A stretch of 62,535 bases of DNA. It comes from Patescibacteria group bacterium. GTDB taxonomy: Bacteria; Patescibacteriota; Microgenomatia; PFEM01; JBHPGO01. The stretch lies in contig JBHPGO010000002.1 of assembly GCA_042570465.1 (NCBI GenBank), positions 1 through 62,535 on the forward strand. The letters run 5' to 3'. Each line of letters starts with the position of its first letter. Positions within the stretch are counted from its first letter, which is position 1. The position numbers and the translations under genes are program-made. Below the pieces are notes generated by a model. It was not told the DNA's origin. It worked only from the letters and a program-made list of their open reading frames with translations, and made no database searches. Shown here one piece after another: positions 17,615-40,733 of the stretch.

Positions 17615-17644
17615 CCCGAGGTTGCCTACTTGGGCAACCTCGGG
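17615..17644. repeat. GC-rich hairpin repeat, copy a
   Basis: cccgaggttgcc-tacttg-ggcaacctcggg, a 12-bp stem, 14 nt after the stop of the preceding gene. Confidence 0.85.
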
Positions 17645-17702
17645 AGTTGGTAAAACATTTTGCTATAGTTTTAAATAATCGTGGTTATTTATTTCCAATG
17701 AT

Positions 17703-18005
17703 ATGACATTAGAAAAATACACATTGTTTAATGTCTTAATTATCGAAGCTGTATTTTTTATTGCTAAGAGTATTTTAAAAAGAAAAAAACTCGTCGGTGG
17801 TTTTCTAACGTCGTTTATCCTTGGAGTCATAGTATTGTATTTTTCTTTCGGAGGTGCCGTTGCTTCATTCTTGAAAAAAGTGATACTCTCGGGGGGAACT
17901 CCAAAGTTAATCGATATTCTTTTACTTTTCTTCAATATGTTCTATGGATATTTAAGAGGACTTTCTAGAATAGCTTCTCTTAATAAAAAATACGGTAATC
18001 TCTAG
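17703..18005 (+). CDS. hypothetical membrane protein
   Basis: 100 aa with three hydrophobic helices. Preferred over the overlapping minus ORF 17663..17935. Confidence 0.4.
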   Translation: MTLEKYTLFNVLIIEAVFFIAKSILKRKKLVGGFLTSFILGVIVLYFSFGGAVASFLKKVILSGGTPKLIDILLLFFNMFYGYLRGLSRIASLNKKYGNL

Positions 18006-18160
18006 TGGTTAGATTAAGAACAAATCAGCTCCCTAGCTCTAGAGTTCTACATATCTCAATAAACAAGATTATTTCAGCATTTAATGACGTAGTCCAAGCA
18101 GAACTTTTAAAAACCAGATGGAATGAGATAAAACGGCTTTCCTCTCATTCGAATTCTTTG

Positions 18161-18772
18161 TTAGTTGCACCTGTCAAAAGCAGGTAAGTGCTTCTGTTCT
18201 GAAGCGTTCATAAGATTGGTAAATACTGCAACAATGTCTTCGTATCCTTCTACTGCTGGTAGTAATTCATCTTTATATAAAGCCGCGTTAGCAATCTCTG
18301 CATCTACACCAATTTGACAAGCCTCTTGTAGTGTGGCTGGTGCTGATACCTTACTTGGCCAGGTATTTGATGGCACTTCCAATCCATACTTGTCATAAAT
18401 AGCTTTAAGTGAAGCAATGTGCTGTTCTTCAGCACCTTTAATCATTGAGAAAGGCCTAACACTTCCAAACTTTGCAATTACTGACTCATAAGTAGAAAGG
18501 GCTTTATATTCATCATTAATAGCTTCGTCTAAAGCACTTTGCACTTCAGGAGATAGTTCTCCTACCGGATATTCCAAGTCATCAACCAATAAACAATCAT
18601 CTGCTAAACAATTACCCCTGTCTGGTTGTCCATTTTGACCTTGTCCAACCCCGTTACCATAACTCAACTCACTTGTTTGAGTATTAGCCTGTTTTGATTG
18701 GGTAATAGCATATCCTCCCAACACTCCAACAAATAAAGCTATGCCTACATACATTAAAATTTTATTATTCAT
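18161..18772 (-). CDS. DUF2202 (ferritin-like) domain protein, secreted or anchored
   Basis: LSPEVQSALDEAINDEYKALSTYESVIAKFG ... GAEEQHIASLKAIYDKYG ... DAEIANAALY matches the DUF2202 repeat pattern. Strong SD: GGAGGTGAAAGAATATG. Confidence 0.7.
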   Translation of the reverse strand: MNNKILMYVGIALFVGVLGGYAITQSKQANTQTSELSYGNGVGQGQNGQPDRGNCLADDCLLVDDLEYPVGELSPEVQSALDEAINDEYKALSTYESVIAKFGSVRPFSMIKGAEEQHIASLKAIYDKYGLEVPSNTWPSKVSAPATLQEACQIGVDAEIANAALYKDELLPAVEGYEDIVAVFTNLMNASEQKHLPAFDRCN

Positions 18773-18882
18773 ATTCTTTCACCTCCCAACTAAACTTAGT
18801 ATAAGTTATCACATTTGAATATTCTATCTACGCATAAACTCCCACATCTATAGCTATGGGAGCCTGCGCTTTATGAATCGTT

Positions 18883-19278
18883 TTAACGATTCCATCCTCG
18901 ACCCGCACCTTGTCCTTTATTACCCTGGCCTGAACCGTCACCATTACGATTACCTAAACCAAGTCTAAGCTCTTGTCTAATTTGCTTGGCTCCATCTAAA
19001 TTACCTTCTTCGGCTAATTCGTGAGCTTCAGCAAACCTTGCAAAATTCTCTGCTGTAACAACTTGGGTAACTCGACCCTTACCTGACATTAACTCTTTCC
19101 AAGCATTATAATCGTTATTTTCAAATGCTTGTTCCATCGCTTCATGTCTTTCAGCTGTACAGTTTGGACCTTGAACACTTGGGTCTCCTTGATAAGCTTC
19201 AGCTACGCTAGAACCCATCATTATGAATCCTCCTAGCACTAATGCTGTCGCTCCAAGTACTATTGATTTCTTATTCAT
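18883..19278 (-). CDS. secreted hypothetical protein with Gly/Asn-rich tail
   Basis: Signal peptide MNKKSIVLGATALVLGGFIMMGSSVAEA. Upstream SD region is identical to that of 18161..18772. Confidence 0.55.
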   Translation of the reverse strand: MNKKSIVLGATALVLGGFIMMGSSVAEAYQGDPSVQGPNCTAERHEAMEQAFENNDYNAWKELMSGKGRVTQVVTAENFARFAEAHELAEEGNLDGAKQIRQELRLGLGNRNGDGSGQGNKGQGAGRGWNR

Positions 19279-19446
19279 ATTCTTTCACCTCCTTTCACAA
19301 ACATTTACTGTTAATAATGAAGATAATAACCAACAAACTTGAAAAATTGCTGAGAACTATCTACACCAGTAATACAAAAGAAGAGATGAGTTTATTTCAA
19401 TCAAATTTAATGGATACCTCTACTTATGTTTTTATAATCATTAAGA

Positions 19447-19476
19447 CTTGACAACCTCTACATGCAATTTGTATAA
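19447..19476 (+). promoter_or_regulatory. sigma70-type promoter upstream of the DUF5320 gene
   Basis: TTGACA (19447-19452), 18-nt spacer, TATAAT (19471-19476). SD AAGGAGGTGA lies 7 nt before the ATG at 19531. Confidence 0.6.
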
Positions 19477-19530
19477 TGGGTATATATTCATTACTATTAT
19501 CATTTACATCTTGTAAGGAGGTGAAGAAAC

Positions 19531-19785
19531 ATGCCCGGATTTGATAAAACAGGTCCCCAAGGAATGGGTCCGAAAACAGGTAGAGGCTTTGGTCCTTGTG
19601 GCCTAGGATTAGGCCGGAAGCGAAGATTTGGAGCTGGTCGTGGAATGGGAAGGTATTTTGGATGTCGGAATTGGCCCCAAACCAAACAAGACCAATCAAA
19701 AGCTCTCGTTGACTATAGAAAAGCTCTGGAGGAAGAGCTAGAAGATGTCAAGAAAGAGGAAAAAGAACTAAACGAGGCAAAATAA
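19531..19785 (+). CDS. DUF5320 domain protein
   Basis: MPGFDKTGPQGMGPKTGRGFGPCG hallmark N-terminus and a coiled-coil tail. Confidence 0.75.
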   Translation: MPGFDKTGPQGMGPKTGRGFGPCGLGLGRKRRFGAGRGMGRYFGCRNWPQTKQDQSKALVDYRKALEEELEDVKKEEKELNEAK

Positions 19786-19868
19786 AGACGACCCCCGCCT
19801 CGCATCAAAAGATGGTGCGGGGCTAGGGGCCAGCCATCTTTATTGTAACAATTTATAAGGAAATTATC

Positions 19869-20144
19869 GTGCCGAGACCTAAAAAACCCCGCTGTTTGCG
19901 GTTCAGACCAAATGTATATTACTTTAAGCCTCAAGGCATCCCTCTAAGGATGCTAGAAGAGGTTGTTTTAGAGCATGACGAACTAGAGGCTCTAAAACTT
20001 CACGATGTTGATGGTTTAGAACAGATAGAAGCAGCTAAAAAAATGAAAATATCTCAATCGACTTTCGCCAGGGTGTTAGACAAAGCATATAAAAAATTGG
20101 CTGAAGGCATAATTAACGGTAAGGCCATTAAAATTGAAAAATAA
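19869..20144 (+). CDS. DUF134 (UPF0251) putative DNA-binding protein
   Basis: MPRPKKPRCLRFRPNVYYFKPQGIP hallmark and an HTH-like LEQIEAAKKMKISQSTFARVL. GTG start. Confidence 0.8.
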   Translation: MPRPKKPRCLRFRPNVYYFKPQGIPLRMLEEVVLEHDELEALKLHDVDGLEQIEAAKKMKISQSTFARVLDKAYKKLAEGIINGKAIKIEK

Positions 20145-20148
20145 ACAT

Positions 20149-20838
20149 ATGAAAAACAAAAAACTATTACTCTCAAGAGTACTTACAGCTCTTTTTTTCT
20201 CACTTTGTTTTCTAACGATTTCTACTCCTATAATCGCCAAAGATTTTCCAGTAATATATTTATTTTACGGAACAGGGTGTCCGCATTGCGCGCAGGTAGA
20301 AAAGTATTTTGAGGACCAAGATTTGCTGAATAAATACTCCGTAGAAAAGAAAGAGATATATTTTAATCGAGACAATGCAATTCTTTTTAATAAGCTTTTA
20401 AGTGAACGAGGCATCCCAACTGAAGCACAAGGAGTTCCTGCTGTAGTTATTGGCAATAAAGCTATCGTAGGGGACAAACCGATTATCGAAAACTTTATTC
20501 CTGAAGCTGAGATATTTTTACAACAAACCGAAGAGCAATTTAATCTTAATAGTGAATCTCAAAAAGAAGCTCAAGACCAAAGATTGGATTTAACCATAGC
20601 CGTAGTCATTGGAGCCAGCATTGTGGATGCAATAAACCCTTGTGCTTTTGCAGTCTTAATAATCCTGATGACAACAATATTGGCAACGGGTAACGGAAAG
20701 AAAGCATTGAAAGCTGGTGTAGCCTTTGCCTCCTCTATTTTTGTCTCATACTTCCTCATGGGATTGGGACTATACAAAGCTTTGGGGATAGGTGAAGTCT
20801 CAGGATTATCCTGTCAACCCCCGAGGTTGCCTAGGTAG
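20149..20838 (+). CDS. thioredoxin-fold / CcdA (DsbD-family) fusion, truncated after TM2
   Basis: Signal sequence, CPHC redox motif, then CcdA TM1 with DAINPCAF and TM2. The frame then runs into hairpin repeat b (GLSCQPPRLPR) and stops in its loop. TM3-6 and the second conserved Cys are absent. Confidence 0.7.
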   Translation: MKNKKLLLSRVLTALFFSLCFLTISTPIIAKDFPVIYLFYGTGCPHCAQVEKYFEDQDLLNKYSVEKKEIYFNRDNAILFNKLLSERGIPTEAQGVPAVVIGNKAIVGDKPIIENFIPEAEIFLQQTEEQFNLNSESQKEAQDQRLDLTIAVVIGASIVDAINPCAFAVLIILMTTILATGNGKKALKAGVAFASSIFVSYFLMGLGLYKALGIGEVSGLSCQPPRLPR

Positions 20839-20851
20839 GCAACCTCGGGGG
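20818..20851. repeat. GC-rich hairpin repeat, copy b
   Basis: cccccgaggttgcc-taggta-ggcaacctcggggg, a 14-bp stem, lying between two convergent stop codons (20836-20838 and 20857-20859). Confidence 0.9.
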
Positions 20852-20856
20852 TTAAA

Positions 20857-23073
20857 TCAATTTCGAGCAAATTTACTCAATTTCATTGACAGAGAGTTGG
20901 TCACCACGCTCACCGAAGAAAAAGCCATCGCGGCGGCGGCGACCACCGGGCTGAGCAACCAACCGGTAAACGGATAAAGTATTCCAGCGGCGATCGGAAT
21001 TCCCAAGCTATTGTAGAAAAATGCCCAAAATAAATTTTGCCTGATTTTTTTCATCGTAAACCGGCTGAGATCAATGGCTTGCACTACCCCCAAAGGATCA
21101 TTTTTCATCAAAATCACTTCTCCGGCTTCAATGGCAATGTCTGTTCCCGAACTCATCACAATTCCCAATTCGGCCTGAGCGAGCGCTGGCGCGTCATTAA
21201 TCCCGTCACCAACCATCGCCACTTGATGACCTTTTTGCTGAAGCTTTTTCACCTCAGCTGACTTCTCCTGAGGCAAAACCTCAGATAATACTTGATCAAC
21301 CCCTAACTTTTGAGCAATCGAGCGACCGACTCTTTGATTGTCACCCGTGATAATCGCCACTTGCTTGCCCAATTGATGGAGCTTATTAACCGCTTCTTGA
21401 GAACTTTTTTTAAGAGTGTCGGCCACCACCAAGAAACCTAAAACTTTTTTTCTAAAAGATAAATACATGACTGTTTTTCCTTGCCTTTCAAACTTTGCCG
21501 CTGAGGGCTTCAGTGACCCAATTGAAATTTTATTCTCCTCCATTAACCGCTGGTTGCCCAACATCACCTCACTCTTTGATAAACGCGCCCTTACCCCAAG
21601 GCCAACAAGAGCTTGAAAATCTTTAACCGGCAGTAAGCTGATTTTTTTCTTTTGAGCGTATGAAACAACAGATTGAGCCAGGGGGTGTTCGGAATTCTTT
21701 TCCACTGAGGCCGCCAATTTGATTAGTTTTTTTTCAGAACAATCATTTTTTAAAACCATAACCTCAGTTACTTCAGGTTTTCCTTTAGTCAGAGTGCCGG
21801 TTTTATCAAAAACAACCGTGTCGATCTTGCCGGCCTGCTCTAAGGCCCGACTGCTTTTGATCAAAATTCCGTTTTGAGCCGCCAGGCCGGTTCCCATCAT
21901 CACCGCTGTCGGAGTTGCCAACCCTAAGGAACAGGGACAAGCAATAATCAAAACTGAAACAAAAGCTGTTAGGGCAAGAACAAGACCCTGACCAAACAGT
22001 AGCCAAACCAAGAAAGTCAAAACCGCTATTCCCATCACAGCCGGGACGAAATAAAAGGAAATTTTATCGGCCAAAAGTTGAATTGGTGCCTTGCTCCCCA
22101 CCGCTTCTTCAACAATCTTAATAATCTGAGCCAAAATTGTTTCACTCTCCACTTTTTCTGCCATCACTCTAATCACCCCGGTTTGGTTAAGAGTCGCCCC
22201 AAAAACCGAATCGCCAACCTTTTTTTCTACCGGCAAGCTCTCACCGGTAATTGCCTTCTCATCGACCGCCGAATAACCCTCAACTACTTTTCCGTCAATC
22301 GGAATGCTCTCTCCGGGCTTGACCAATAAAATGTCCCCTTTCTTAACCTGGCTAACCAAGACTTTAGTCTCACGACCGCCTTTAATTATGGTTGCCTGCT
22401 TTGGCTGGAGATCGATCAGTTTTTCAATCGCCTGAGTAGTTTTACCTTTTGTCAAGCTTTCTAAATATTTACCCAAAGAAATAAAGACTAAAATAAAAGC
22501 CGCCCCCTCAAAGTAAAGATGAGTATCCCTAACAGATGAAGGGGAAAACCAAACCAACGCTGTCACGACCAGACTATAAAAATAGGCCGCCAAAGTTCCG
22601 GTTTCAACTAAAGAATCCATATTGGGATTACGCTGAATTAATTTCTTTAAACCAGAAACATAAACATGGGCGTTGAGCAGCATGATGAAAGTTGTAATTA
22701 TCAGCTGAACTAAAGCATTAATCCTCAAAGGAATAGCCGGGATTGGTAAACCCAACATCTTGCCCATACTTAGATAGAGCAAGGGTAAACCCAAGATTAA
22801 TGACTGCCAAAAAGTTTTTTTTAATTTCTTAAGATATGCCTTGGGGTTCGCTTGACTACCCTCAACCAAAAGAAAACCAGATTCCTTAACAAAAGATCGG
22901 ATTTCCTCCAGGACAATCTTTTTCGAATCATATTCTAAATAAAGCTTTTCCGAAGCAAAATTAACTTTGGCTGAAATGATTCCTTCTTTATCAGTCAAAA
23001 TTTTTTCGATATTTAGCGCACAACTAGCACAATGCATGCCCTGAATTTTTAAGATTATTTTTTTCTTTTTCAT
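20857..23073 (-). CDS. copA: copper-translocating P1B-type ATPase
   Basis: HMA domain GMHCASC, CPC motif [29 protein letters not shown] at 23073 ([18 protein letters not shown]) is preferred over the track start 23202, which overlaps the upstream gene. Confidence 0.95.
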
Positions 23074-23101
23074 TTTTTTGAAGCTAAAACTATCACTCCC
23101 A

Positions 23102-24592
23102 CTAACTTCCACTACAACCACAACCTTGGACCCCAGATGGAATCTCCTTTTCTTGACCTTTAATAACTGGACCAGATGATCCGCTTGAATCAACCACTTC
23201 AATTATTCCATTAACCATTCCCATCCAACAGCTAAATTTGTAACGGCCAGGTTTTTCTGGAGTAAACTCTTTGATTGTCAGCCCTTGACTCAAATCAACC
23301 TGACCCTCGAACAAACTCCGAGAGACAATCGCATTCGTACAACCGCTAACTCCCTGATTGCTGATTTCCCAACGAACCGGAATCCCGACCTGAACCTTGA
23401 AATAGCTTGGTTCGTACCCATAAGCAAAGGCGTCCATTTTAATAACTTGAAAACCGTTTGGTTCCGTCGCGACTGCTTCAGCTGAATAGCTCGAAAAAAT
23501 CACCCAGTCATTAAGGCTTGGTAAGCCTAAGACATTCAGTTGAGAGTTAAAATTGTAAAAACCAAAAAGAATGACTGCGACGCCGGCGACTTTGAAAAAT
23601 ACTTTCCCCAACTGAGGCTTGAAAACTATTTTTTGGCTGGAAAGTCCAATAGCCAAAAGAATTGGCAAAGTCCCAAGGGCAAAAGATAACATCATCATCG
23701 CTCCTTGAATCATGCTTCCCGAAGCTAAAGCCAAACCTTGAACCGTTAAAGTAAAACCGCAGGGCAAGAAAAAGGTTAAAACTCCTAAAATCCCCGGCAT
23801 TAGCCGACCTTTAAAATTACTTTCATTAACAATCCAACGGGAAAAAAATTTCGGCGAACTAAGCTGAAACCTTGAAAACATTTTTACCCCCAACATCTGA
23901 AGACCAAAAGAAACCATTATCACTGAAACAAGAATTGTTAATATTGAGGCCGCTGTTAAAGAAAGCTGCATCACTTCTCCTAAGGCTCCTAAAAGACCAC
24001 CTAAAACAAAAAAAGAAGCGAGCCGACCGAAATTAAACATCAGGTGAGGCTGAAATATTTTCCAAGAAGAATCTTGATTTTGGTAAACTTCAGCCCAGCG
24101 TTTACTCATCGACAAAACTAACCCCCCAACTAAAGCAGCACAACTGGAAACTCCGGCGACTAAACCAAAAATTAAAAAAGCCAATAGCGGTGAAGAAGCA
24201 TTAACAACCACCCTTGAAGCCAACTGAGAACGAGTTAACCACCAAAAAGAAACCAGTAGGACTGAAATGATCAATAACCCCTGGACGATCGGGAAAAGTT
24301 TCTCTCGATTCAGCAACAATTGCCCATTTTTTACCGTCAGGATTGAAGTTTTCTCCTTTTTTGAAACTGGCTGATCTAATAAACGATAGCCTTGGTTGAA
24401 ACAAAATTTTTCAAATTTCTTCATCAGTGGCTTTTGGCCTTGATAAAATATATTAACCTGACCGTTGGCCGCTGATGCTTCGACCACTTTAATCCCCTTT
24501 TCTTTTAAAAGCTCTCTTTCAACAATTAATTCACAAGAAGCACAATGCATTCCATCAATATGGAGAGTCATTTGTTTGTTTTTACTTGACAT
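23102..24592 (-). CDS. HMA domain / TauE-SafE-like membrane domain / cupredoxin-like domain fusion protein
   Basis: N-terminal GMHCASC, about 6 TM helices, C-terminal [17 protein letters not shown]...[11 protein letters not shown] (cupredoxin-like) and a CGCSGS tail. Confidence 0.7.
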
Positions 24593-24628
24593 TATTCTGC
24601 AAAATATTATTGAAACCAGTTATTTATT

Positions 24629-25192
24629 TTAAAAAAGATCGGCCGCTTTTTGAATATCATCTACTTTCACAATTACTTGCCCCGATTCAACCAAAGCATC
24701 AGAATCTATAGGCCGAGGATTGCACCCACCTCTTTGGAGGGCAATCTCGTCTTTTGAATAAGTTGTTCGACAGTTTTCGCATCTGATTAAATCGCCAACT
24801 TGATTAAAGCCTTCTTGTGAGTCAAAACAAACCTCACAAGCATTAGCTGCCACCCGATAAGTTCCGTCAGAGGCCTTGATTACAAAAAAATAAATGGTTT
24901 TGTCTTCCTGAGGTGAATAATAGTTAAAAGAGTGAAGATTTCCATCATTAACCTTGGCCTCGTCAAGATAAACCAATCCTTCTACCGCTTCAACCACCTC
25001 ACCCTTTTCCCCTAAAAATCCATTTTCTTTTTCAGAAAGAACCGCTGGTCGAACTAACGATGGATCACTTGCCAAAGCATTTTCTTTGACTGGCTCGGTT
25101 TTTCTTTGAAACAAACCAATAACCACTCCCGCCACGATTAAAATCAAAGGAACAAAGATAACCAATTTATTTAATTCAACTTTTATTTGCAT
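24629..25192 (-). CDS. DUF2318-like membrane-anchored Cys-cluster protein
   Basis: TM anchor, then ANACEVCFD...IRCENCRTTY...GGCNP cysteine pattern. Confidence 0.5.
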   Translation of the reverse strand: MQIKVELNKLVIFVPLILIVAGVVIGLFQRKTEPVKENALASDPSLVRPAVLSEKENGFLGEKGEVVEAVEGLVYLDEAKVNDGNLHSFNYYSPQEDKTIYFFVIKASDGTYRVAANACEVCFDSQEGFNQVGDLIRCENCRTTYSKDEIALQRGGCNPRPIDSDALVESGQVIVKVDDIQKAADLF

Positions 25193-25235
25193 TTTGAAAC
25201 CGATTATTTATATTTATGTTTTGGGAGACAATAAT

Positions 25236-25514: not shown

Positions 25515-25531
25515 GGTTAACACCAAAAAGT

Positions 25532-25559
25532 ATTATACCCCCCCTAGGGGGGTTGTCAA
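25532..25559 (-). promoter_or_regulatory. consensus promoter whose spacer is a CsoR-type G/C-tract palindrome
   Basis: Minus strand reads TTGACA (25554-25559), a 16-nt spacer acccccctaggggggg, then TATAAT (25532-25537). The palindrome cccccctagggggg spans 25539-25552. Confidence 0.75.
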
Positions 25560-25579
25560 GTAGAAGTTTTCTATGAACT

Positions 25580-25618
25580 CCCCGAGGTTGCAATATATGT
25601 CAACCTCGGGGGTTGACA
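25580..25618. repeat. GC-rich hairpin repeat, copy c
   Basis: ccccgaggttg-caatatatgt-caacctcgggg, followed by gttgaca. Confidence 0.85.
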
Positions 25619-25665
25619 ATTTCGTATTTAGTCGGGCAGGCCGGGGGGGGGAAGAAAGAAGAATC

Positions 25666-27720
25666 TTAAAACTCTAGCTGATTAACATCTTGCCAATCAG
25701 CCTCGTTAAGAACAACAATTTTGTCTTCACCAATCACATAAAGATAGTCGTTAATATAAATGGCCCGCTTGGCGCGAATATCAGCGATTGCTTTGGTTAA
25801 ACTAAGTTGGTTGTCCTGGTAGGAAAATATATAACCTCCCCTGCTTCCCGGTAAGAAAAAGATCTGGTGCTGGCTGTCAAGCAAAAAAGCGTGATGAGTA
25901 TTGAGAATATCTGACCAGTACTCATCCATCAAATATTTGCTTACTTCAAGCGGATTGGTCGGCGAAGAAACATCAAATAAAGATATTTTGACCTTTGATC
26001 CTTCCTTCCCGATCCCAAGAATTTTATTTTTATCAATCGGGTGTAAATAAGAAGAGTAACCGGGAATTTTAAGCTCTCCGGTAACTTGAGGGTCCCTGGG
26101 ATTTGAAAGATCTAAAACATAAAAAGGATCAATCTGTCGAAAAGTGACCAGGTAGCCCTTATCAGCAATGAATCGCGCCGAATAGATCTTCTCCCCTAAC
26201 CCCAAATCTAAAACCGAACCAACTTGATCTAAATATTGATCTAAAACATAAACATCATTGGCGCTTTCCCCACCGGCCCTACCCCAACTATTCACCGTCG
26301 TCGCGACTCGCAAATAATTTTGGTACTCGTCGAGAGCAAATTGGTTCAGCGGTCTTCCGGGAAAATTGCCGCTGGCGGTAATGGTGAAATCGTCTAAACC
26401 AATTTTTACCAAGTCTGTCTTTTCCAAATCACGAATACGCTTTTGGAAAAAAGATTGAAGTTGGTTTTGGAATTCATTATTAACCCTCAATCGTTCATCT
26501 TTAGAAAGGGAACGAGAATATTTTTCATAAAGAGAGTCAAACTCCATCATCTTTGTCGCTGAACTCAAATCATAGCTTCGCAACAATCTTATCTTTTCCC
26601 GAAAAGACTCGGGCAGTAGACTTTGACTTTCTTCTTCAATGAATTGCGCCATTAATTCAAAATGGTCCGCTTGGTAAGTATAGGTAAGATAAAGAGAACT
26701 TTCTGACATATAAATCATCGAGTTACTGGTTGAGCCAATCAAGGAAATGTTTTTTTCAATTTCACCGCTTTGAGGATCCAATACAAAAGCATGATAATTA
26801 ACATCAACCGGGACAATAGTTCGGGGATGATAAATGTCTGTACAACTTATTGCCAAACTCCTCTGGTTGAAAATCAAAGGCTCAATCGGGCAGGGGATAT
26901 CATAATTTACCGGACCAGCGGTCACAAAATAAACCTTCCCCTGATAAAGCCGGGCGTTAACCAGGTAATGATTGTCCTGAAAGTCGATTTGCCATTTTTT
27001 GATTGGCGACTCAGGGCGAGAAACATTGTAACCTGAAATACGCTCATTATTTTCGAAGATGGCTAATATCTCGTTGGTCAAAAGCAAGTCACCGGTTTGA
27101 GAAATTTCCGCTTCTTTTTTTAATTGTGCCGGTGGAAAAGCCCTAATTACCTTGGTCCCATTGGCTATCTTCGGCGGAGGAATGATGCTTTCTTCCATAA
27201 AAACAACATTTCTTGGCTGGCGAATTAAATAAGGTGACTGAGGCGAAAAATAGATTTCCTGACCATCAGTTTTGACAATATCCGGCTCATCAATCCCCTT
27301 TACTTGAACATTAGTCTCAGAAACTCTTTCCAAGGCAGCCCCACCAAGACCCGGAGCCATGGCTTCCATTCTCATATCTTCAGCTGCAAATGATCTGTCC
27401 CCAATGGCTTCAATCGGAAAACCCCTACCCATCATCTTGGCTAACTCTTCGGGAGACTCATCTAAATAGGCCTTATAATCAGCTTCTGAGGTGAATTTTT
27501 CAAAGATTGCTTCTTGGGAAGAGAGAGGGACCAAAGGATCACCAGACGAAGATGGTGTCGGAAACCGGAAGGGAGCTGATATTTTTACCAACTTCGAAGA
27601 ATAATAAACTCCCACCAAAATTAAGAAAAACAGCAAAAAGACCATCCCAATAATTGGTTTTTGATGATCTTTCTTTTTCTGATTTAAAAATTCAATCTCC
27701 TGATTTTTTTTGGTCACCAA
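25666..27720 (-). CDS. secreted beta-propeller domain protein
   Basis: 684 aa. TM/signal anchor, then ETNVQVKGIDEPDIVKTDGQEIYF and repeated beta-blade-like segments, as in the Beta_propel family. TTG/GTG start. Confidence 0.6.
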   Translation of the reverse strand: MVTKKNQEIEFLNQKKKDHQKPIIGMVFLLFFLILVGVYYSSKLVKISAPFRFPTPSSSGDPLVPLSSQEAIFEKFTSEADYKAYLDESPEELAKMMGRGFPIEAIGDRSFAAEDMRMEAMAPGLGGAALERVSETNVQVKGIDEPDIVKTDGQEIYFSPQSPYLIRQPRNVVFMEESIIPPPKIANGTKVIRAFPPAQLKKEAEISQTGDLLLTNEILAIFENNERISGYNVSRPESPIKKWQIDFQDNHYLVNARLYQGKVYFVTAGPVNYDIPCPIEPLIFNQRSLAISCTDIYHPRTIVPVDVNYHAFVLDPQSGEIEKNISLIGSTSNSMIYMSESSLYLTYTYQADHFELMAQFIEEESQSLLPESFREKIRLLRSYDLSSATKMMEFDSLYEKYSRSLSKDERLRVNNEFQNQLQSFFQKRIRDLEKTDLVKIGLDDFTITASGNFPGRPLNQFALDEYQNYLRVATTVNSWGRAGGESANDVYVLDQYLDQVGSVLDLGLGEKIYSARFIADKGYLVTFRQIDPFYVLDLSNPRDPQVTGELKIPGYSSYLHPIDKNKILGIGKEGSKVKISLFDVSSPTNPLEVSKYLMDEYWSDILNTHHAFLLDSQHQIFFLPGSRGGYIFSYQDNQLSLTKAIADIRAKRAIYINDYLYVIGEDKIVVLNEADWQDVNQLEF

Positions 27721-28187: not shown

Positions 28188-28205
28188 ACAAGATTAATTG
28201 TATCA

Positions 28206-28955
28206 TCAGTTCTGAAAACGTTTAAAAACCCTGAACATGATTGAAAGAAAATCAATTCTTTTTTCCCATTCCTCAAGTGAATCATAGTTTATAGTTTGCC
28301 ATTTTTTCAAACCGCCAGATTTTTTAATTTCCTTTTTAAACCGATCCGGGTCTTCCCAAGTTAAACCTCTAACCTCTTGATAACCAATTTTCAGTCCAGT
28401 TTGATGAACAAGCAACGGCCATTCAACACAAGCTCCCCAGCTTTTTTCTCGTGAATTATTAAGCATTACCTTAGCCGCTCGACGATTAAATAGAAAAGTG
28501 GCCGCCAAAACATCAACTTGAAAGCCAATTACCTTTGAAACTAAATAGTTGGTGATGATTTCCGTTTTTTGCCAAGAAAAGGGGTAAGTAGAAAAAACTT
28601 TTGGACCCCGACCCGAAATCAAAAAATCTTGAGGAAGTGGTTTGGCTAATATCTCTTTTAATTCCTTGGGGGCAACTTCAAGCCAATGAAAAATTTTATC
28701 AAAATCACAAACAAAAAAATTATCAGTTTCTGTTTGAAGGGCAATCTCAAGAGCTCTTTTCCGAGCCTCTCCCCACTGACCCCCGATAACGAGCTGGCAA
28801 CCTAATTTTTTTAATGATTCAATGACTTTTTTGTCAGTGGCCTTAGTATAGGCAATAATTATCTGATTAGGATAAACAACCAGCTTCTCACGAACTTTTT
28901 TTATCAGAGGCAAAAATCTACCTTCTGGATCGTGAAGAGTGGAAAGAATAAACAT
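28206..28955 (-). CDS. hypothetical protein, possibly GT-A-like
   Basis: 249 aa ORF with a DFD motif (FFVCDFDKIF). No confident family assignment. Confidence 0.4.
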   Translation of the reverse strand: MFILSTLHDPEGRFLPLIKKVREKLVVYPNQIIIAYTKATDKKVIESLKKLGCQLVIGGQWGEARKRALEIALQTETDNFFVCDFDKIFHWLEVAPKELKEILAKPLPQDFLISGRGPKVFSTYPFSWQKTEIITNYLVSKVIGFQVDVLAATFLFNRRAAKVMLNNSREKSWGACVEWPLLVHQTGLKIGYQEVRGLTWEDPDRFKKEIKKSGGLKKWQTINYDSLEEWEKRIDFLSIMFRVFKRFQN

Positions 28956-28994: not shown

Positions 28995-29045
28995 CCCGAG
29001 GTCACGCTTTTAACACGATCTGGGCAACCTCGGGGGGGTTGATTG
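28995..29045. repeat. GC-rich hairpin repeat, copy d (degenerate left arm)
   Basis: cccgaggt-24 nt-acctcggg, followed by ggggttgattg. The right half tgggcaacctcggg equals that of copy a. Confidence 0.7.
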
Positions 29046-29046: not shown

Positions 29047-29460
29047 CTATCGCGTGATGGTGATCGTTTCACCCAGCTCCGCACTAGAAGCGCTGGCCGT
29101 TAAGCGACCATCTGCCTCCTGGAATAAAACATAGTCGGTACTGGCCGCATCACCATCGGCTGGATCAAATGGAACCGCCGGAATATAAGCCGGAACCAAA
29201 TCTGTAGCTAAATTCAAACCACCGGAACCAATGTCTGTCGCCGAACTTGTGATCGCCGCTGGGAAATTGCCATCGTTGGAAACAGCGAATTGGTGACAAG
29301 CATTAAGAGTTTGGTAAATGTCATTCCGTCGCTGAGTGTTTCTGGCTTGGGCAAAATTTCGGGCCGGGTTAACGGCGACCAAAACAATTGCTGCTAATAT
29401 GGCGATGACGCCGATAACAACCAAAAGCTCAATTAGTGTAAAACCCTTATTTTTTTTCAT
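29047..29460 (-). CDS. type IV pilin / pseudopilin
   Basis: MKKNKGFTLIELLVVIGVIAILAAIVL is a class III signal with Gly-Phe cleavage and Glu+5. Alternative upstream starts are TTG at 29469 and GTG at 29484, after a GGGGGTG SD. Confidence 0.85.
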   Translation of the reverse strand: MKKNKGFTLIELLVVIGVIAILAAIVLVAVNPARNFAQARNTQRRNDIYQTLNACHQFAVSNDGNFPAAITSSATDIGSGGLNLATDLVPAYIPAVPFDPADGDAASTDYVLFQEADGRLTASASSAELGETITITR

Positions 29461-29580
29461 ATAAAACAAATCTAATTGATTCACCCCCTCTCCGAGGATA
29501 ATTTCTTATTTAATATTTCTTCTTTAAGGTTAGCAAAGAAAAATTCAGCTTGTCAAGCACTGACTGAAAAACCTCCTTGA

Positions 29581-33198: not shown

Positions 33199-33243
33199 TT
33201 GAAATTGTTTAGATTTTAGAAATTAGGATTTAGTAATTTCGTC

Positions 33244-34587: not shown

Positions 34588-34615
34588 AAGTAATTATGTA
34601 ACTAGTAAATTGTAA

Positions 34616-35002
34616 TTAGGATTTTTGCTTTTCCTTAGCTTTCATAGTCGAATTTATCAAACCGTTTAGACTCGGACGCATTTTTTGATAAGTCTGAAGA
34701 TATTTCTTTTCAAATATCGCCTTAGCCTTTTCTCTTTCACTTAAAAGATCGAACCAGTGCCTTGATTCCAATAATGAACCCCGAGAGTTAAAGTAAAACT
34801 TGACTTTATCTAAGTAATGGAAACGTCCGTAGCCTTCGGCAACATTGGCTCCGACAGAATCGGTTGACTCAATAAATTGGTTACCCATTATTTTCTTGTC
34901 CTGCCAATCTAAATCTTGATAGATTTTCCAAGAAATTTTGCTTAATTTCCTGGCTAATTTATAAACTTCTAACTTGTCTAAGGACAAATAGTCTTTGGCC
35001 AT
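34616..35002 (-). CDS. four-helix-bundle protein (23S rRNA IVS / Avd-like family)
   Basis: NQFIESTDSVGANVAEGYGRFHYLDKVKFYFNSRGSLLESRHW matches the family signature Q..RS..SI.ANI.EG. Confidence 0.8.
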   Translation of the reverse strand: MAKDYLSLDKLEVYKLARKLSKISWKIYQDLDWQDKKIMGNQFIESTDSVGANVAEGYGRFHYLDKVKFYFNSRGSLLESRHWFDLLSEREKAKAIFEKKYLQTYQKMRPSLNGLINSTMKAKEKQKS

Positions 35003-35053
35003 TATTAAAGAATCCTAATTACATAATTTCTAATTACTAATTACCAATTACCC

Positions 35054-35533
35054 TTACTGTTCCTCTATCAAAACTACTCCCAATTGGTTAACGCTAATTT
35101 TCTCCCTCATGGATGATTGCTGATCGGCAATCATCAGATAATTATTCACCGGGTCAAAACCAAGAATTTCACCGGTAATTTTTTCAAAAACTATACTGTC
35201 GGCCGGTAAAAAGATTTCGTCAATCCTGACTGAATCCGGCAAAACAAATACTTGATTTTGGGAATTTCCTGAACTGTAAACCGTCCCGGGAAAAAGCGTG
35301 TATTGATCATCTTCAAAATAAACTCCAAAATTAAGTGCCTGACTGCCACCAAGGGAAAAGCCAGCCACGGTCTTAACTCTGGCTTCACTGATGAGGCTCT
35401 CAATTTTCCGAGCTTCGATTATCAAACGATCTTTTTTAACAAAATTGTCATAAACAACTGTTCCTAAAGAAAACAAGATAACCAATAAGGCAATCACAAT
35501 TAATACTTCAATTTGAGAAAAGCCTTTTTTCAT
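35054..35533 (-). CDS. prepilin-type pseudopilin (GspH/FimT-like)
   Basis: MKKGFSQIEVLIVIALLVILFSLG. ATG at 35533. Confidence 0.7.
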   Translation of the reverse strand: MKKGFSQIEVLIVIALLVILFSLGTVVYDNFVKKDRLIIEARKIESLISEARVKTVAGFSLGGSQALNFGVYFEDDQYTLFPGTVYSSGNSQNQVFVLPDSVRIDEIFLPADSIVFEKITGEILGFDPVNNYLMIADQQSSMREKISVNQLGVVLIEEQ

Positions 35534-35557
35534 TTTTGAGTCTTTAAGTAATGACAA

Positions 35558-36787
35558 CTAACTCCCACCGACACTCATCGACAAACTTCCAACAAAAGAG
35601 TAAATCGGAGCGATCAGAGAAACGACGACTGCCCCAACCCCTAAACCAATTGCTAGCATTAAGAGAGGTTCGATCAAGTCGGTCATTGTTTTTAATGAAT
35701 TACTGACTTTTTCTTCATAAAAAACTGCCAAGTCAAAGAGCAACTTATCCAATGTGGCTGTCTTTTCTCCAGTCATAATCATACTGGTCATAATCGGCGG
35801 AAAAAGCTGAGTTTCTTTCAGTACCTCTGAAAGCTGCCGCCCCTGACCAACCTGCTCAGTCAAAAGACCCTTGACCTTCTTGAATCTCGGCAATTTCAAC
35901 ATCCCTGACGAAACTTCTAAGGCACTGACAATCGAAACCCCACTTTTCAGCAAGGTAGAAAGAGTTCGACTAAATCTAGTTATCGCCAAATCAGTATAAA
36001 AATCTTTAATCACCGGCAAACGAGACAAAATATTTACCAATAGTTCTCTACCCCGACGACTGGCTAAAAACATCACCAAACCCGTTCCTAGTGCCCCTAA
36101 GCCGACTAAGAAGAAGAGAATATTTTTTGAAAGGAAAAGGCCAATTTTAAGAATGACCATCGTGTGAGCCGGTAGAGGAAAAGTATCGCTTAACCTTAAA
36201 AGAACCGGAGAAATCTTTGGCACGACAAAGACAAGTAAGCCCAAACCCAAACCCATTGTCGCCATCGTCACGACGACCGGGTAAGCCAAAGTACTTTTAA
36301 TTTTCTGACTCAATTCATAGTCAGCATAAAGCTGTTTCCCTAAGTACTCAAAAGATTGCTCCAAGGTTCCACTGTCTTCACCGGCCTTGATCAAAGTCAA
36401 GAAAACATTATCAAACACTTGAGGGTGCCGAGCAAAAGCATTCGAAAGGAATTGACCTTTTTGGATACCGGAGCGAACATCATCGAGAATCTTTTGCATC
36501 GCCGGATGGTTAATTTCCGCCGATAAAACCTCAACCGCCTCAGACAAAGGCAAGCCAGACTTGATCATCGCCGCCATATAGCGACAAAAATTTGCTTTCT
36601 CAATTAATGGCAACCCTCCGGCAAGAAATTTTTTTCTTTTTTGAACCGATTTTGCTTCTTTAACAAAAAGGGGGGCCAAGCCTTGGTCTTTTATCTGACG
36701 ACCGGCCTCAACTTTAGAATCAGCGACCACTGATCCTTCTTTGATCTTGCCCTTTTTTGTTTTGGCTTTGTAGTTAAAAATGCTCAT
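35558..36787 (-). CDS. pilC: type IV pilus assembly platform protein PilC (GspF family)
   Basis: 409 aa. Two GspF-type repeats with three TM helices, and the typical N-terminus FNYKAKTKKGKIKEGSV. Confidence 0.85.
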   Translation of the reverse strand: MSIFNYKAKTKKGKIKEGSVVADSKVEAGRQIKDQGLAPLFVKEAKSVQKRKKFLAGGLPLIEKANFCRYMAAMIKSGLPLSEAVEVLSAEINHPAMQKILDDVRSGIQKGQFLSNAFARHPQVFDNVFLTLIKAGEDSGTLEQSFEYLGKQLYADYELSQKIKSTLAYPVVVTMATMGLGLGLLVFVVPKISPVLLRLSDTFPLPAHTMVILKIGLFLSKNILFFLVGLGALGTGLVMFLASRRGRELLVNILSRLPVIKDFYTDLAITRFSRTLSTLLKSGVSIVSALEVSSGMLKLPRFKKVKGLLTEQVGQGRQLSEVLKETQLFPPIMTSMIMTGEKTATLDKLLFDLAVFYEEKVSNSLKTMTDLIEPLLMLAIGLGVGAVVVSLIAPIYSFVGSLSMSVGGS

Positions 36788-36803
36788 TTTTTTATATCAA
36801 AAA

Positions 36804-37202
36804 TCAAAATTGTTTTTTACCCTTGAGGGTTAAAATACTTGAACCGATAATTTTTGAAATCTTAATTACTTCATTTAGTAAGTCATTCACTTCTTCAGAA
36901 TCTTCCTGACTGACTTCCTTTACCAAAATCAACCAATATTTTGTTTCATTCGCACTTTTTAAGGCAATCTCAAAATACCTAATGTATTCTCTTTTAGAGG
37001 ATGAAGATTTTGCTTCAACTACATTAGCACCAATTGAGGTAGAACTTCGAATTAACTGATCAATTATTGTCCAATAAAATTTCTTTTCCTTTAATTTATT
37101 TGAAAATTTAATAATTCTTACTGAAAATCTAACTAATCGCCTGGTAAATTCTTTTTTAAATTTTGATTTATCATTCTGATCTTTGAAATTTGATTTTTGC
37201 AT
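36804..37202 (-). CDS. four-helix-bundle protein (23S rRNA IVS / Avd-like family)
   Basis: DQLIRSSTSIGANVVEAKSSSSKREYIRYFEIALKSANETKYWL. Packed 16 nt and 5 nt from pilC and pilB. Confidence 0.8.
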   Translation of the reverse strand: MQKSNFKDQNDKSKFKKEFTRRLVRFSVRIIKFSNKLKEKKFYWTIIDQLIRSSTSIGANVVEAKSSSSKREYIRYFEIALKSANETKYWLILVKEVSQEDSEEVNDLLNEVIKISKIIGSSILTLKGKKQF

Positions 37203-37207
37203 TATCC

Positions 37208-38890
37208 TTACTCCTGCACTACCCGCAATACTTCCTCGATTGTGGTCACCCCTGAGGCAATTTTATCCAAACCATCAGCTAGCATACTAATCATTCCCGA
37301 CTTGAGAGCCATCTTATTGATCTCCTCCGCCGCAACTTTTTTAATGATCAGTTCCCTGATCTGATCATTGATCTCTAAAATCTCATAGATGCCCACCCGG
37401 CCTCGATAACCCGTCCCGCCACATTCATCACACCCCTCTCCATGATAAAAGTCCTGCTTTTCAACTTTCTGGCCAAAATGAGAAATAAAGAATTTCAATG
37501 ACTCTCCTTCCGGCTTGAACCGTTTGATACAAGCCGTACAAATCCGCCGCACTAGCCTTTGAGCAATCACTGCGTTGGTCGTCGAAGCAATTAAAAAACC
37601 TTCCGCCCCAATGTCTAGTAATCTCGGAAATGCTCCCGCCGCCGCATTAGTGTGCAAGGTTGAAAAAACTAAGTGACCAGTCAGGGCCGAGTGAATGGCT
37701 GTTTCGGCTGTCTCTTCATCCCTGATTTCACCAACCATGATAATGTCCGGGTCATGACGAACCAGTGAACGAAGCCCAGCCGAAAAAGTCAGTCCAGTAA
37801 CCGGATTAACCTGAACTTGAGTAATTCGCTTAATACTGTATTCGATTGGGTCCTCAACCGTACAAAGCTTAACTTCAGCGGTATTTAATATGTTTAAAAC
37901 ACTGTAAAGAGAAGTTGTTTTTCCACAACCGGTCGGACCGGTGACCAAAATCATCCCGTTAGGTTTTTTGATATTGCGCCTTAAAACAACCAGGTTTTCT
38001 CCTGAAATTCCTAATTCCTCAAGGCTTAATGGGCGCGCCGATTCAAAAAGCAATCTTAAAACAACGTTTTCACCATAAAAGGCCGGTAAAATCGAAACCC
38101 GAAGAGAAATATAATCTTCACCCAGTTGAAACTTGAAACGACCATCTTGAGGAAGACGATGTTCATCAATCTTTAAGTTGGACAAGATCTTTATCCGGGC
38201 CACTAAAGCCGGATGAACCTCCTTGGGAAGTGAGATGATGTCCCTCAGTATCCCATCAATCCTAAAACGAACCACCAATTCCTCTGACAACAGCTCGATG
38301 TGAACGTCTGAACTTCTTTCAGCCGCCGCATAAGCTAAAAGAGTATCCAATATTTTAATAACCGGTAAATCAAGAGCAATTTTGGCCAGGTTTTTATTGT
38401 CGATTTTCTTAGCTTTTTTCAGATTTTTCTGAATGATTTCTTTAAATTCAAGGCGGATGTTTTTTTTGTACTGAGAAAGACCTTTGCTAATTGCCTCTGG
38501 GGTAGCCAAAAAAGGAGAAACCTTGAGACCGGTTTGCCTTTTGGCAAACTCTAAGGCCTCAAAATCTTCGGGGTCTTCCATGGCTAAAGAAAAAGTTTTT
38601 TCTTTTTTCTCAAAAGGAAGGATCCGATGAGAGCGGGCTAAATTTTCCGGAATCAACTCCAAGGTTGTCAGGGGAATTACCCGATGCCTTAATGAAACAA
38701 AGGGAACTTTGTAGTACTCGGCAATCAATTGCCCCAAAGACTGTTCATTAATCAAACCTCTGAAAATTAGGATATCTTCCAACGGGCGACCAACTTCTTT
38801 AGCCACCTTGGCGGCTTCTTCGAATTCATTACTACTGACAAAACCCTTACTAACAACAATCTCTTTTAATTTTTCGGGCAGGATAGCCAT
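37208..38890 (-). CDS. pilB: type IV pilus assembly ATPase PilB (GspE family)
   Basis: Walker A GPTGCGKTT, GspE N-terminal domain, CxxC...CxxC zinc motif (CTAC ... CDEC). Confidence 0.9.
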   Translation of the reverse strand: MAILPEKLKEIVVSKGFVSSNEFEEAAKVAKEVGRPLEDILIFRGLINEQSLGQLIAEYYKVPFVSLRHRVIPLTTLELIPENLARSHRILPFEKKEKTFSLAMEDPEDFEALEFAKRQTGLKVSPFLATPEAISKGLSQYKKNIRLEFKEIIQKNLKKAKKIDNKNLAKIALDLPVIKILDTLLAYAAAERSSDVHIELLSEELVVRFRIDGILRDIISLPKEVHPALVARIKILSNLKIDEHRLPQDGRFKFQLGEDYISLRVSILPAFYGENVVLRLLFESARPLSLEELGISGENLVVLRRNIKKPNGMILVTGPTGCGKTTSLYSVLNILNTAEVKLCTVEDPIEYSIKRITQVQVNPVTGLTFSAGLRSLVRHDPDIIMVGEIRDEETAETAIHSALTGHLVFSTLHTNAAAGAFPRLLDIGAEGFLIASTTNAVIAQRLVRRICTACIKRFKPEGESLKFFISHFGQKVEKQDFYHGEGCDECGGTGYRGRVGIYEILEINDQIRELIIKKVAAEEINKMALKSGMISMLADGLDKIASGVTTIEEVLRVVQE

Positions 38891-39038
38891 CCCATAATTC
38901 CTTTCAAGCGCTCACTTTTGTTTCACTCAACACAAACTAAGCCAGCTTCTTCAGCTGCCAAAATATTTATTAACCTAACCTTTTTAAGTTTAACCTGAGC
39001 CGACTGGAAAATTCAAGATCAAGAAGTTTTTAAGAAGA

Positions 39039-39581
39039 TTATTTTGCCAAGGTTTGCCTGATCTTTTCGACCACTTGGCCTGGAGTATAATTAGCTTTGA
39101 CCAAAAATTCTTTAACTCCCAATTCTTTGGCTCGCTGAATATCTTGCTCTTGAGAAAGATTAGAAAGAATCATTACCGGAACATTTTTGGTCGCCGAGAC
39201 TAATCGTAACTTTTCCAGAACATCCATCCCGCCTACTTTGGGGATCATCAAATCTAAAACTACTAAGTCTGGCTTCCACTGCTCAATCTTTTTTAACCCC
39301 TCTTCTCCGTCATAAGCCACCTCAACCTCAAAACCCTCAATCTCTAACTTAGTCGAATACATCTTCACCATCGGCGGATCATCTTCAATCATTAAAACCC
39401 GACCACGACCAGCCCCTTTTCGAACTACTTTTTGAGCCCCTTTTTTAACCACTTCTTTTTTCAACTTAACTGGGGCAACTTGATCCCCTTGTCCAGCTCC
39501 TGCTTGAGCCTGAGGAACCGATTGGTCTTTCTTTTCCTCAAGACTATTTTGATTAGCTTTACCTTGTTGATTATCGTCCAT
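39039..39581 (-). CDS. receiver-only response regulator with low-complexity N-terminus
   Basis: REC domain (VLMIEDDPPM ... DLVVLDLMIPKVGG ... KANYTP). No output domain. Confidence 0.8.
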   Translation of the reverse strand: MDDNQQGKANQNSLEEKKDQSVPQAQAGAGQGDQVAPVKLKKEVVKKGAQKVVRKGAGRGRVLMIEDDPPMVKMYSTKLEIEGFEVEVAYDGEEGLKKIEQWKPDLVVLDLMIPKVGGMDVLEKLRLVSATKNVPVMILSNLSQEQDIQRAKELGVKEFLVKANYTPGQVVEKIRQTLAK

Positions 39582-39600
39582 TGTAAACCTCAGGTGGCAT

Positions 39601-40584
39601 TTAAGTTTCTATTACCGGGAGACTAAAATAAAAAGTTGTTCCCTTACTCAGTCTAGACTTAAGCCAAATTTTTCCACCAAACTCAGAGATGAGCATTTTG
39701 CAAATATAAAGACCAAGTCCGGAACCCTTTTTCATCGGCGCATGAGCCCCATTAATTTGAGAAAACTTTTTGAATAAGCCCTTTTGATTTTGCCTGGAAA
39801 TCCCAACTCCAGAATCTTCAACTTCAGTAATCAGCATCCCCTCCTGAAGCCTATTTCTCACCAACACTTGACCATGAGGAGTAAAGTTAATTCCATTACC
39901 AATTAGATTAGCAATGATTTCCCGAATACGATCCGGATCGACCCTTACCTTAGGCAATTTCTTCTTTGACTTTTCGTACTTCAAAGACAAACCATGTTTT
40001 TTAGCTTCATACTGATATTCTTTAACAACTGATTCAATGACTGATTCGAGGTGAATATCATCTAAGCTCATGATTAATCTTCCAGACTCAATTCGAGAAA
40101 CATTAAGCATGTTATTAACTAAACGAATCATTCGATCGTTGCTATTGTAGGCACTCTCTAGAAATTCCTTAACCCTTGGTGGAATTTTACCGGCATCACC
40201 TTCTAAGATCATCGCCAAGTAACCTTTAATGGTCGTCATCGGTGCCCGCAGTTCATGAGAAGCAACTGACACAAACTCGTCTTTTAAAGCCGAAAGCTCT
40301 TGGAGTTTAAGATTGGTCTTTTTCAGCTCGCCGGTAATTTTTTGAATTTCCTTTTGTGATTCATTGTGAGAAAAAACTTTATCAATCAAAACAATCATCA
40401 CCATCAACAATAAAATCAAGACGCTCTCTAAGGTCAAAAAGCTCCGGAAAAAAATTGTTATTACGGTCACGAAAATAAAGATGGCCAACATCAACCGACT
40501 CCAGGAGCGAGTCTCCATCGTCATCCCTGAGGGAAATTTCGCCAGCTTACTGATTAAACCGTTCTTTTTATTCTTCCGAGGCAT
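39601..40584 (-). CDS. sensor histidine kinase
   Basis: H-box SHELRAPMTTIKGY, N-box and G-boxes (GSGLGLYICK), two TM helices. ATG at 40584; the track start 40632 is TTG. Confidence 0.85.
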   Translation of the reverse strand: MPRKNKKNGLISKLAKFPSGMTMETRSWSRLMLAIFIFVTVITIFFRSFLTLESVLILLLMVMIVLIDKVFSHNESQKEIQKITGELKKTNLKLQELSALKDEFVSVASHELRAPMTTIKGYLAMILEGDAGKIPPRVKEFLESAYNSNDRMIRLVNNMLNVSRIESGRLIMSLDDIHLESVIESVVKEYQYEAKKHGLSLKYEKSKKKLPKVRVDPDRIREIIANLIGNGINFTPHGQVLVRNRLQEGMLITEVEDSGVGISRQNQKGLFKKFSQINGAHAPMKKGSGLGLYICKMLISEFGGKIWLKSRLSKGTTFYFSLPVIET

Positions 40585-40697
40585 TAAAAACAGAATATCA
40601 TTTTCCCTGATTGCTTTCAACCACCTTACCAAAAGTAATTTAACCCCATCAGTCTAAGCGACTTCAAAGTGGAAAAACACCCTTTATCGCACATTTT

Positions 40698-40733
40698 CCC
40701 GAGGTTGCAATATGTGTCAACCTCGGGGGTTGA
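40698..40733. repeat. GC-rich hairpin repeat, copy e
   Basis: cccgaggttg-caatatgtgt-caacctcggg, followed by ggttga. It lies in a divergent intergenic region, so it is not in a terminator position. Confidence 0.85.

Follow-up and report, generated by a model that had tools for sequence, protein, structure and literature searches.

The question raised by this locus is what a short GC-rich hairpin does between the operons of a small genome. A contig of 62,535 bp from a member of the Patescibacteria (JBHPGO010000002.1; the whole contig is referred to below as the window) contains five copies of such a hairpin, and consecutive copies divide part of the contig into four gene blocks. In a preliminary description of this DNA the copies were compared to repetitive extragenic palindromic (REP) sequences and bacterial interspersed mosaic elements (BIMEs), and were proposed to act as recombination junctions for the exchange of accessory gene cassettes. 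Our analysis upholds the likeness to REP sequences and gives little support to the exchange of cassettes. On balance, we lean towards the view that the hairpins are a lineage-specific family of REP-type tagged palindromic repeats, which would serve as stem-loops and insulators at transcript 3' ends and would be prone to rearrangement.

A repeated GC-rich hairpin in the window

The intact unit, CCCGAGGTTG-N10-CAACCTCGGG, is present four times (copies a, b, c and e), and a fifth copy (d) is degenerate in its left arm, with 20 nt between the arms. When the window was searched with zero mismatch, the 10-mer CCCGAGGTTG and its reverse complement were confined to these five elements. The relaxed pattern CCGAGGT-N8-30-ACCTCGG yielded five matches, compared to 0.00 expected from 100 dinucleotide-preserving shuffles, none of which contained a single match. 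Both searches returned the sites named in the preliminary description and no others, so that its number of copies and their positions were confirmed. A covariance model built from the copies and run on the window with filters off did not reveal any further copy, the next best match reaching 15 bits. Screening with the Rfam covariance models gave no match at the hairpins, neither at the gathering score nor at E<=1.

All five copies have the same orientation and carry a one-sided tail on the + strand. The tail GGTTGA, described early as frequent, is indeed present at c, d and e, with the variants GGTTAA at b and AGTTGG at a; read on the - strand, GGTTGA becomes a 5' TCAACC head that precedes the hairpin. 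Reading of the sequence likewise agreed with the two loop subtypes that had been distinguished, GTTGCC/GGCAAC in a and b and CAATAT(AT)GTGT in c and e, both set on identical arms. Because identical arms bear two loop subtypes, the repeats reflect copying rather than convergence: several intergenic sites have received a copy of one unit. The stems comprise 12-17 bp with fold energies of -16 to -35 kcal/mol, and the copies with their flanks fold far better than shuffled sequences (z down to -8.6), d and e being the weakest. The copies are single and lie 3.2-11.7 kb apart, at a local density of 5 per 62.5 kb; REPs number tens to hundreds per genome. All of them fall within 23 kb of the 62.5-kb contig, a clustering that is not significant (~0.07 in a simple span calculation). 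The hairpins had been said to stand out in an AT-rich genome, which is only moderately true, as the window has a GC content of about 40%.

In the REP-type reading, the unit is a perfectly or nearly perfectly paired GC-rich hairpin of 30-40 nt with the core arms CCCGAGGTTG/CAACCTCGGG and a short one-sided tag. Once transcribed, it would fold into a stem-loop of high stability, placed at the 3' end of a transcription unit or close to it. Such a stem-loop would pause or attenuate read-through and block 3' exonucleases, and would hence insulate neighbouring units; the apparent bracketing of operons would arise because the hairpins insulate at transcription-unit ends. At the level of DNA, a palindrome of this length would be prone to deletion or rearrangement. 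The most economical guess is that the unit is copied by an enzyme that would be encoded elsewhere in the genome and act on the tagged hairpin. The five units share with REPs the form of a short palindrome (20-40 nt in REPs, 30-40 nt here) at multiple extragenic sites, and most of them sit behind coding regions, flanked by open reading frames in co-directional or convergent arrangement. The likeness to REPs suggested earlier is therefore upheld, with one sequence repeated at several intergenic sites and relatives on other low-GC contigs. The likeness to BIMEs is not, since there are no clustered or alternating copies.

Gene context of the copies and related hairpins

Copy b (20814-20855, +; core 20820-20849) forms a perfect 17-bp stem (20816-20853, -34.7 kcal/mol) with a tag on both sides. 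It takes up the entire gap between a ccdA/glutaredoxin fusion gene (20134-20838, +) and the copA stop codon (20857-20859, - strand), and overlaps the end of the former open reading frame, all other copies being located between annotated genes. The ccdA/glutaredoxin gene is truncated at copy b. Its product comprises 234 residues, compared to 356-385 in many homologues, and the last ~149 codons are lost. The best homologue is 70% identical and stems from a Patescibacteria genome. Homology stops at residue 225, corresponding to nt 20808 and thus to a point 6 nt before the extended hairpin, and hairpin b supplies the end of the reading frame, namely nine codons (SCQPPRLPR) and the stop codon. The missing C-terminal part of 149 residues is absent anywhere in the contig. 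Copy b sits exactly at a gene-truncating junction, and hairpin b accounts for a pseudogenised ccdA. The segment to which this gene belongs (17645-20817) had been termed Firmicute- or archaeal-like; the Patescibacteria best matches of ccdA do not bear this out.

Copy a (17614-17651, +; core 17615-17644) folds into a hairpin at 17614-17645 with a 14-bp stem and a 4-nt loop (-27.4 kcal/mol), followed by the tail AGTTGGT. It is located 14 nt past the stop of a NAGPA-domain gene (16341-17600, +) and 58 nt ahead of a small gene (17703-18005, +), which is real, having full-length homologues of 93-133 residues. Copy c (25580-25618, +; core 25581-25610) has a 13-bp hairpin at 25580-25611 (-21.6 kcal/mol) and the tail GGTTGACA, and is found 55 nt past the stop of a beta-propeller gene (25666-27720, -) and upstream of the csoR promoter and operator. 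In the degenerate copy d (28995-29042, +; core 28995-29034; -16.2 kcal/mol; tail GGGGTTGA) the left arm has become CCCGAGGTcac, with a distance of 20 nt to the right arm. Here the stop of a pilin-like gene (29047-29484, -) precedes the copy by 12 nt, and the gene at 28206-28955 (-) starts 39 nt beyond it. Copy e (40698-40733, +; core 40698-40727; 12 bp, -18.3 kcal/mol; tail GGTTGA) lies between a histidine-kinase gene (39601-40632, -) and an HbpS-like gene (+), which confirms that it separates divergent genes. Hence, four of the five copies follow a stop codon at a distance of 1-55 nt (a 14, b 1-2, c 55 and d 12 nt), and the flanking genes are co-directional at a, c and d, convergent at b and divergent at e.

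In the c/e subtype, the junction of arm and loop reads TTGACA on the - strand (25598-25603 and 40715-40720). At copy e, GAAAAT follows this hexamer after 16 nt, giving a promoter match of 10/12 that points towards the histidine-kinase operon, to which the element may supply a -35 box. A -35-like TTGACA or TTGATT had also been noted on the right flank of the hairpins. Such hexamers do exist as sequence; however, copies b, c and d have no + strand gene downstream, and for this reason, and with no matching -10 found, the GGTTGA tail was rejected as a -35 element. The region upstream of csoR (25532-25562) contains a GC-rich palindrome, ACCCCCCCTAGGGGGGT, which resembles a CsoR-type operator; it shares bases with a - strand sigma-70 promoter match of 12/12 (TTGACA-16-TATAAT) immediately ahead of the gene. 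On the other side of copy e, the HbpS-like gene begins in an unusual way. Its first ~20 conserved codons (40819-40891) are without a canonical start codon, and a GTG preceded by GGGGG is positioned one base out of frame, just ahead of an A8 run (40822-40829). Possible causes are an error in sequencing the homopolymer, a pseudogene that arose by frameshift, or expression that depends on slippage.

Pattern scans of collections of genomes, metagenomes and viruses yielded, for the most part, single hairpins without relation to the family, scattered over many phyla and at roughly the chance level estimated for one 10-bp stem among millions of terminator hairpins. A smaller set of loci resembles the copies more closely. 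On a metagenome contig of 40% GC (L052), CCCCCGAGGTTGCCTAGCTAGGCAACCTCGGGGGTTGA is nearly identical to copy b, has the same tail and lies 12 nt past the stop of a cupin gene. About seven low-GC loci, two of them from one Saccharibacteria metagenome-assembled genome (MAG), extend the core to AACA-CCCGAGGTTG...CAACCTCGGG-TGTT, and other low-GC loci carry CAACC-CCCGAGGTTG, like copy b, the common arm form being (C)AAC[A/C]CCCGAGGTTG. The apical parts vary freely yet remain self-complementary, with stems of 15-27 bp. Most of these related hairpins are found 7-60 nt past the stop codon of a housekeeping gene (clpB, a release factor gene of the prfA/B type, a NUDIX gene or rplD), and one separates rplD from the gene that follows it in a ribosomal-protein operon. 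Another is part of a coding sequence: at 5380-5405 of L055 (identical to 4649-4674 of L058), TCAACACCCGAGGTTGAGCGCTCAACCTCGGGTGTTGA is read in frame as STPEVERSTSGVE, a 13-residue insert in the inter-domain linker of uvrA. In the Saccharibacteria MAG, the related hairpin is placed inside a larger composite repeat with flanking CAAGGTCGGGT motifs (L028 3140-3270 and L036 5840-5930). The viral contigs gave one match and therefore no phage link.

Alternative explanations for the hairpins

The GC-rich stems and the position of four copies 1-55 nt after a stop codon are also what would be expected of plain intrinsic (Rho-independent) terminators that share their sequence by chance and have no mobility or DNA-level role; copy b would then serve two convergent genes. 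A consensus scan indeed picked up copy a in the - direction, and at c, d and e a small alternative + strand hairpin with a T-rich tail (CAACC-TCGGG-GGTTG). However, no U-tract or T-run follows the main stem on the transcribed strand at a (+), b (either strand), c (-) or d (-). The transcribed-strand tails are AGTTGGTA (a, +), GACAGGAT (b, -), AGTTCATA (c, -) and ATAAACGA (d, -), and canonical terminators do occur in the same contig, for example at 43793. Moreover, 30 identical bases are not expected of independent terminators, copy e lies between divergent starts and copy b overlaps an open reading frame. Related copies are found inside uvrA and, within a ribosomal-protein operon, after rplD. 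We consider this explanation improbable, in agreement with the earlier statement that the family is not simply a set of terminators.

A similarly low probability applies to the original proposal that the hairpins mark sites where multi-gene blocks were inserted, excised or swapped. It draws on copy b, which is placed exactly at the ccdA truncation point, and on the first block (A, 17645-20817), which is flanked by copies of the same subtype (a and b). Block A is atypical in its tetranucleotides, only ~1% of random windows being as extreme, and has two genes with a very low GC content at third codon positions (GC3). However, a lone breakpoint at a long palindrome is also accounted for by ordinary palindrome-stimulated deletion. 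The three remaining blocks, B (copper), C and D (pilus and two-component genes), are ordinary in tetranucleotide composition and thus compositionally native. The blocks range from 3 to 11.6 kb and hold 4-13 genes with both strands represented, which does not favour exchange as units. Pfam scans of 60 open reading frames of the window did not detect any transposase, integrase, REP-associated tyrosine transposase (RAYT) or Y1_Tnp domain, five frames at 58793-62525 lying outside the scan; the earlier remark that integrase and transposase genes are lacking holds for the frames scanned.

The gene content of the blocks argues in the same direction. The copper operon order csoR, FtrD-like, HMA/DsbD/cupredoxin, copA recurs at ~57% identity in another Patescibacteria genome (L100), and a looser version is found on a metagenome contig (L101), with no hairpin at the operon borders in either. 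The shared gene order marks the copper genes as an operon that is conserved in Patescibacteria. At the equivalent position upstream of csoR in L100 (6576-6609), a weak hairpin-model match may be the equivalent of the palindrome described above. Block D is made up of genes for type IV pili and two-component systems, which are of a chromosomal housekeeping type, and includes no mobility gene; it is not an obvious accessory cassette. The neighbourhoods of the beta-propeller, ccdA and copper genes are wholly different in relatives at 57-70% protein identity, as exchange would predict, but at this distance a loss of synteny is expected under any mechanism. These were the nearest relatives in the searched collections, with no strain-level relative among them, and their loci (L094-L101) showed neither the hairpin family nor synteny. 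An exact search with one protein of the window gave no match. Synteny breakpoints are not scorable from these loci, because at 57-70% identity synteny is lost everywhere. Consequently, little remains of the accessory cassettes and recombination junctions of the preliminary description: copy b alone is found at a demonstrable breakpoint, and the other copies are found at ordinary transcription-unit boundaries.

Two further explanations appear very unlikely. The first is an assembly error, in which a wrong join of the contig at the palindromes would have made ccdA look truncated and produced the blocks; in its favour are the metagenomic origin of the assembly, the exact coincidence of the truncation with a repeat and the deviating composition of block A. 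Common metagenome assemblers use k-mers longer than 14-16 nt. A mis-join is unlikely because the longest exact stretch shared between copies is 14 nt (a and b) or 16 nt (c and e), with arms of <=17 nt, and even after a wrong join the hairpin would still adjoin ccdA codon 225, so that an insertion into the gene remains. Equally remote is that the five sites are operators of a dimeric DNA-binding regulator and form its regulon: two invariant 10-bp half-sites around a variable centre and the location of c and e upstream of promoters would be in line with this, but the half-site spacing is 10 nt in four copies, 20 nt in d and 6-16 nt in related elements, the variable centres are self-complementary as in a hairpin and not a spacer, and most copies lie at 3' ends, next to functionally unrelated genes.

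The remainder of the contig contains at least two other repeated palindromes at gene ends (3476-3524/61196-61243 and 3716-3760/5799-5833). The first pair forms a second family that is AT-rich and ~48 nt long, AAWCCTTTAAAWTAGATGCCACGATCGT...; both copies are in intergenic regions with a gene 3' end, that at 3476 between co-directional - strand genes and that at 61196 between convergent genes. The GC-rich repeats and hairpins at 3716-3760 and 5751-5837, namely TCGACTCGGGTCGAYCCGAGGCG, ACCTAAGTCAC (three copies) and a CCCAGGGGTG...CACCCCTGGG hairpin, are clustered in two intergenic regions. Directly to the right of hairpin c, just past the beta-propeller gene stop, a ~35-nt direct repeat was noticed (25621-25655; TTCGTATTYAGKCRGGCAGGCC..GGGG.GGAA), the second copy of which is at 5853-5888 (~80% identity). 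An 81-nt direct repeat (8410-8490 and 8636-8716, 80% identity) lies in 779 nt without a confident gene (8054-8832). The best named relatives of the contig are Microgenomates and Patescibacteria, and its genes include one for a fused NiFe-hydrogenase subunit, several for type IV pili and others for glycolysis. The contig belongs to one replichore, because GC skew is negative over its whole length. A ParE toxin/Phd-YefM antitoxin pair (2238-2740, -) represents the sole addiction-module-type genes seen. Two PF05635 genes ('23S rRNA intervening sequence protein', a four-helix bundle) are located among the type IV pilus genes (34616-35002 and 36804-37202, both -), the second having an unusually low GC of 0.27. 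A 714-nt gene-free stretch (49267-49980) contains a match to a divergent bacterial RNase P RNA (RF00010; 49348-49764, -) that covers the full model length at 70.8 bits (E=6e-20), below the gathering score of 100.

The proposed REP-type family and known systems

Several observations weigh against a REP-type family with a role at transcript ends. The evidence base consists of five copies in 62.5 kb. About 80% of the intergenic regions in the contig hold a 3' end anyway, which weakens the argument from position; copy e is not at a 3' end, and the orientation of the element relative to transcription is not uniform, a being opposite to b, c and d. The ten core pairs are invariant among the copies and hence give no covariation support for a role as RNA. 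The flanks of all five copies are free of the GTAG or CGTC tag, and no inverted doublets (REPINs) or BIME clusters are found, the five units being single and in one direction. There is no consistent target-site duplication either, copy a alone having AAAACAT on both sides (p about 0.0075, uncorrected). In REP systems the RAYT gene, which encodes a Y1 HUH transposase, is flanked by REPs; among the 60 scanned frames, none of the mobility genes sought, RAYT included, was found. In the REP-type reading, which we nevertheless prefer, the hairpins would constitute a new family of the REP kind, outside the GTAG and CGTC super-families.

We also considered a wider scheme, to which we attach little weight. 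The hairpins might belong to a super-family that extends across several low-GC lineages resembling the candidate phyla radiation (CPR), with a 15-nt arm CAAC[A/C]CCCGAGGTTG and free apical parts, the units being copied by a hairpin-recognising enzyme that truncates genes and re-joins operons in reduced genomes with no other mobile elements. A previously unknown enzyme of this kind is suggested because the sequence of stem base and tag is conserved; it would be a functional analogue of RAYT or of IS200-type HUH transposases.

Genomes of Patescibacteria/CPR are small and are regarded as poor in mobile DNA. A REP-type family in this group would give a handle on how such genomes are punctuated and rearranged. 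A literature search found no report of REPs in Patescibacteria/CPR, and in literature text the arm sequences gave unrelated primer matches only. The present family has a new tag, and its arms recur in hairpins of other low-GC contigs, a Saccharibacteria MAG being the source of two of these contigs. For annotation, the hairpins are markers of transcription-unit boundaries.

Several known systems invite comparison, integron cassette arrays among them. Like attC sites, the hairpins are imperfect palindromes that separate gene blocks. This identity was rejected, as the elements are 30-40 nt long and attC sites roughly 57-141 nt, R''/R' boxes are absent, GTTRRRY fits copy b alone (GTTAAAT), and the blocks are multi-gene, two-strand segments of 3-11.6 kb, not single-gene cassettes in one orientation, with no integrase among the scanned frames. 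Intrinsic terminators share the GC-rich stem-loop shortly after stop codons and, in one copy, the service of convergent genes. They differ in that the hairpins have no transcribed-strand U-tract and an identical sequence at five sites, one of which is in a promoter region and one over an open reading frame. Correia elements and paired DNA-uptake sequences of Neisseria are short inverted repeats at gene ends that can terminate transcription, carry promoter hexamers and mark rearrangements. The TTGACA on the - strand of the c/e loop recalls the Correia elements, which are, however, 100-150 bp long with terminal inverted repeats and TA duplications. DNA-uptake sequences are also abundant as single copies, whereas the 10-mer was never found alone. 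Rickettsia palindromic elements (RPEs), of 100-150 bp, and intragenic REPs are brought to mind by the in-frame hairpin in uvrA and by the last nine codons of ccdA; in contrast to RPEs, hairpin b brings a stop codon and truncates the protein instead of decorating it.

The closest parallel is found in the REPs and REPINs of Proteobacteria. The REP super-families carry an unpaired GTAG or CGTC tag at one end, and published REPs lie mostly downstream of genes but also inside repair genes, uvrA among them (Di Nocera et al. 2013, PMC3733652). The present family differs from them in its tag (TCAACC versus GTAG/CGTC), in its stems (12-17 bp versus typically 6-9 bp), in its single copies in one direction versus inverted doublets, with no RAYT seen in the scanned frames, and in its host, Patescibacteria/CPR versus Proteobacteria. 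Common to both are a palindrome of 20-40 nt at many intergenic sites, mostly downstream of genes, an unpaired tag at one end, sub-families that differ in the loop or apical stem, relatives that now and then lie inside genes such as uvrA, and an association with rearrangements.

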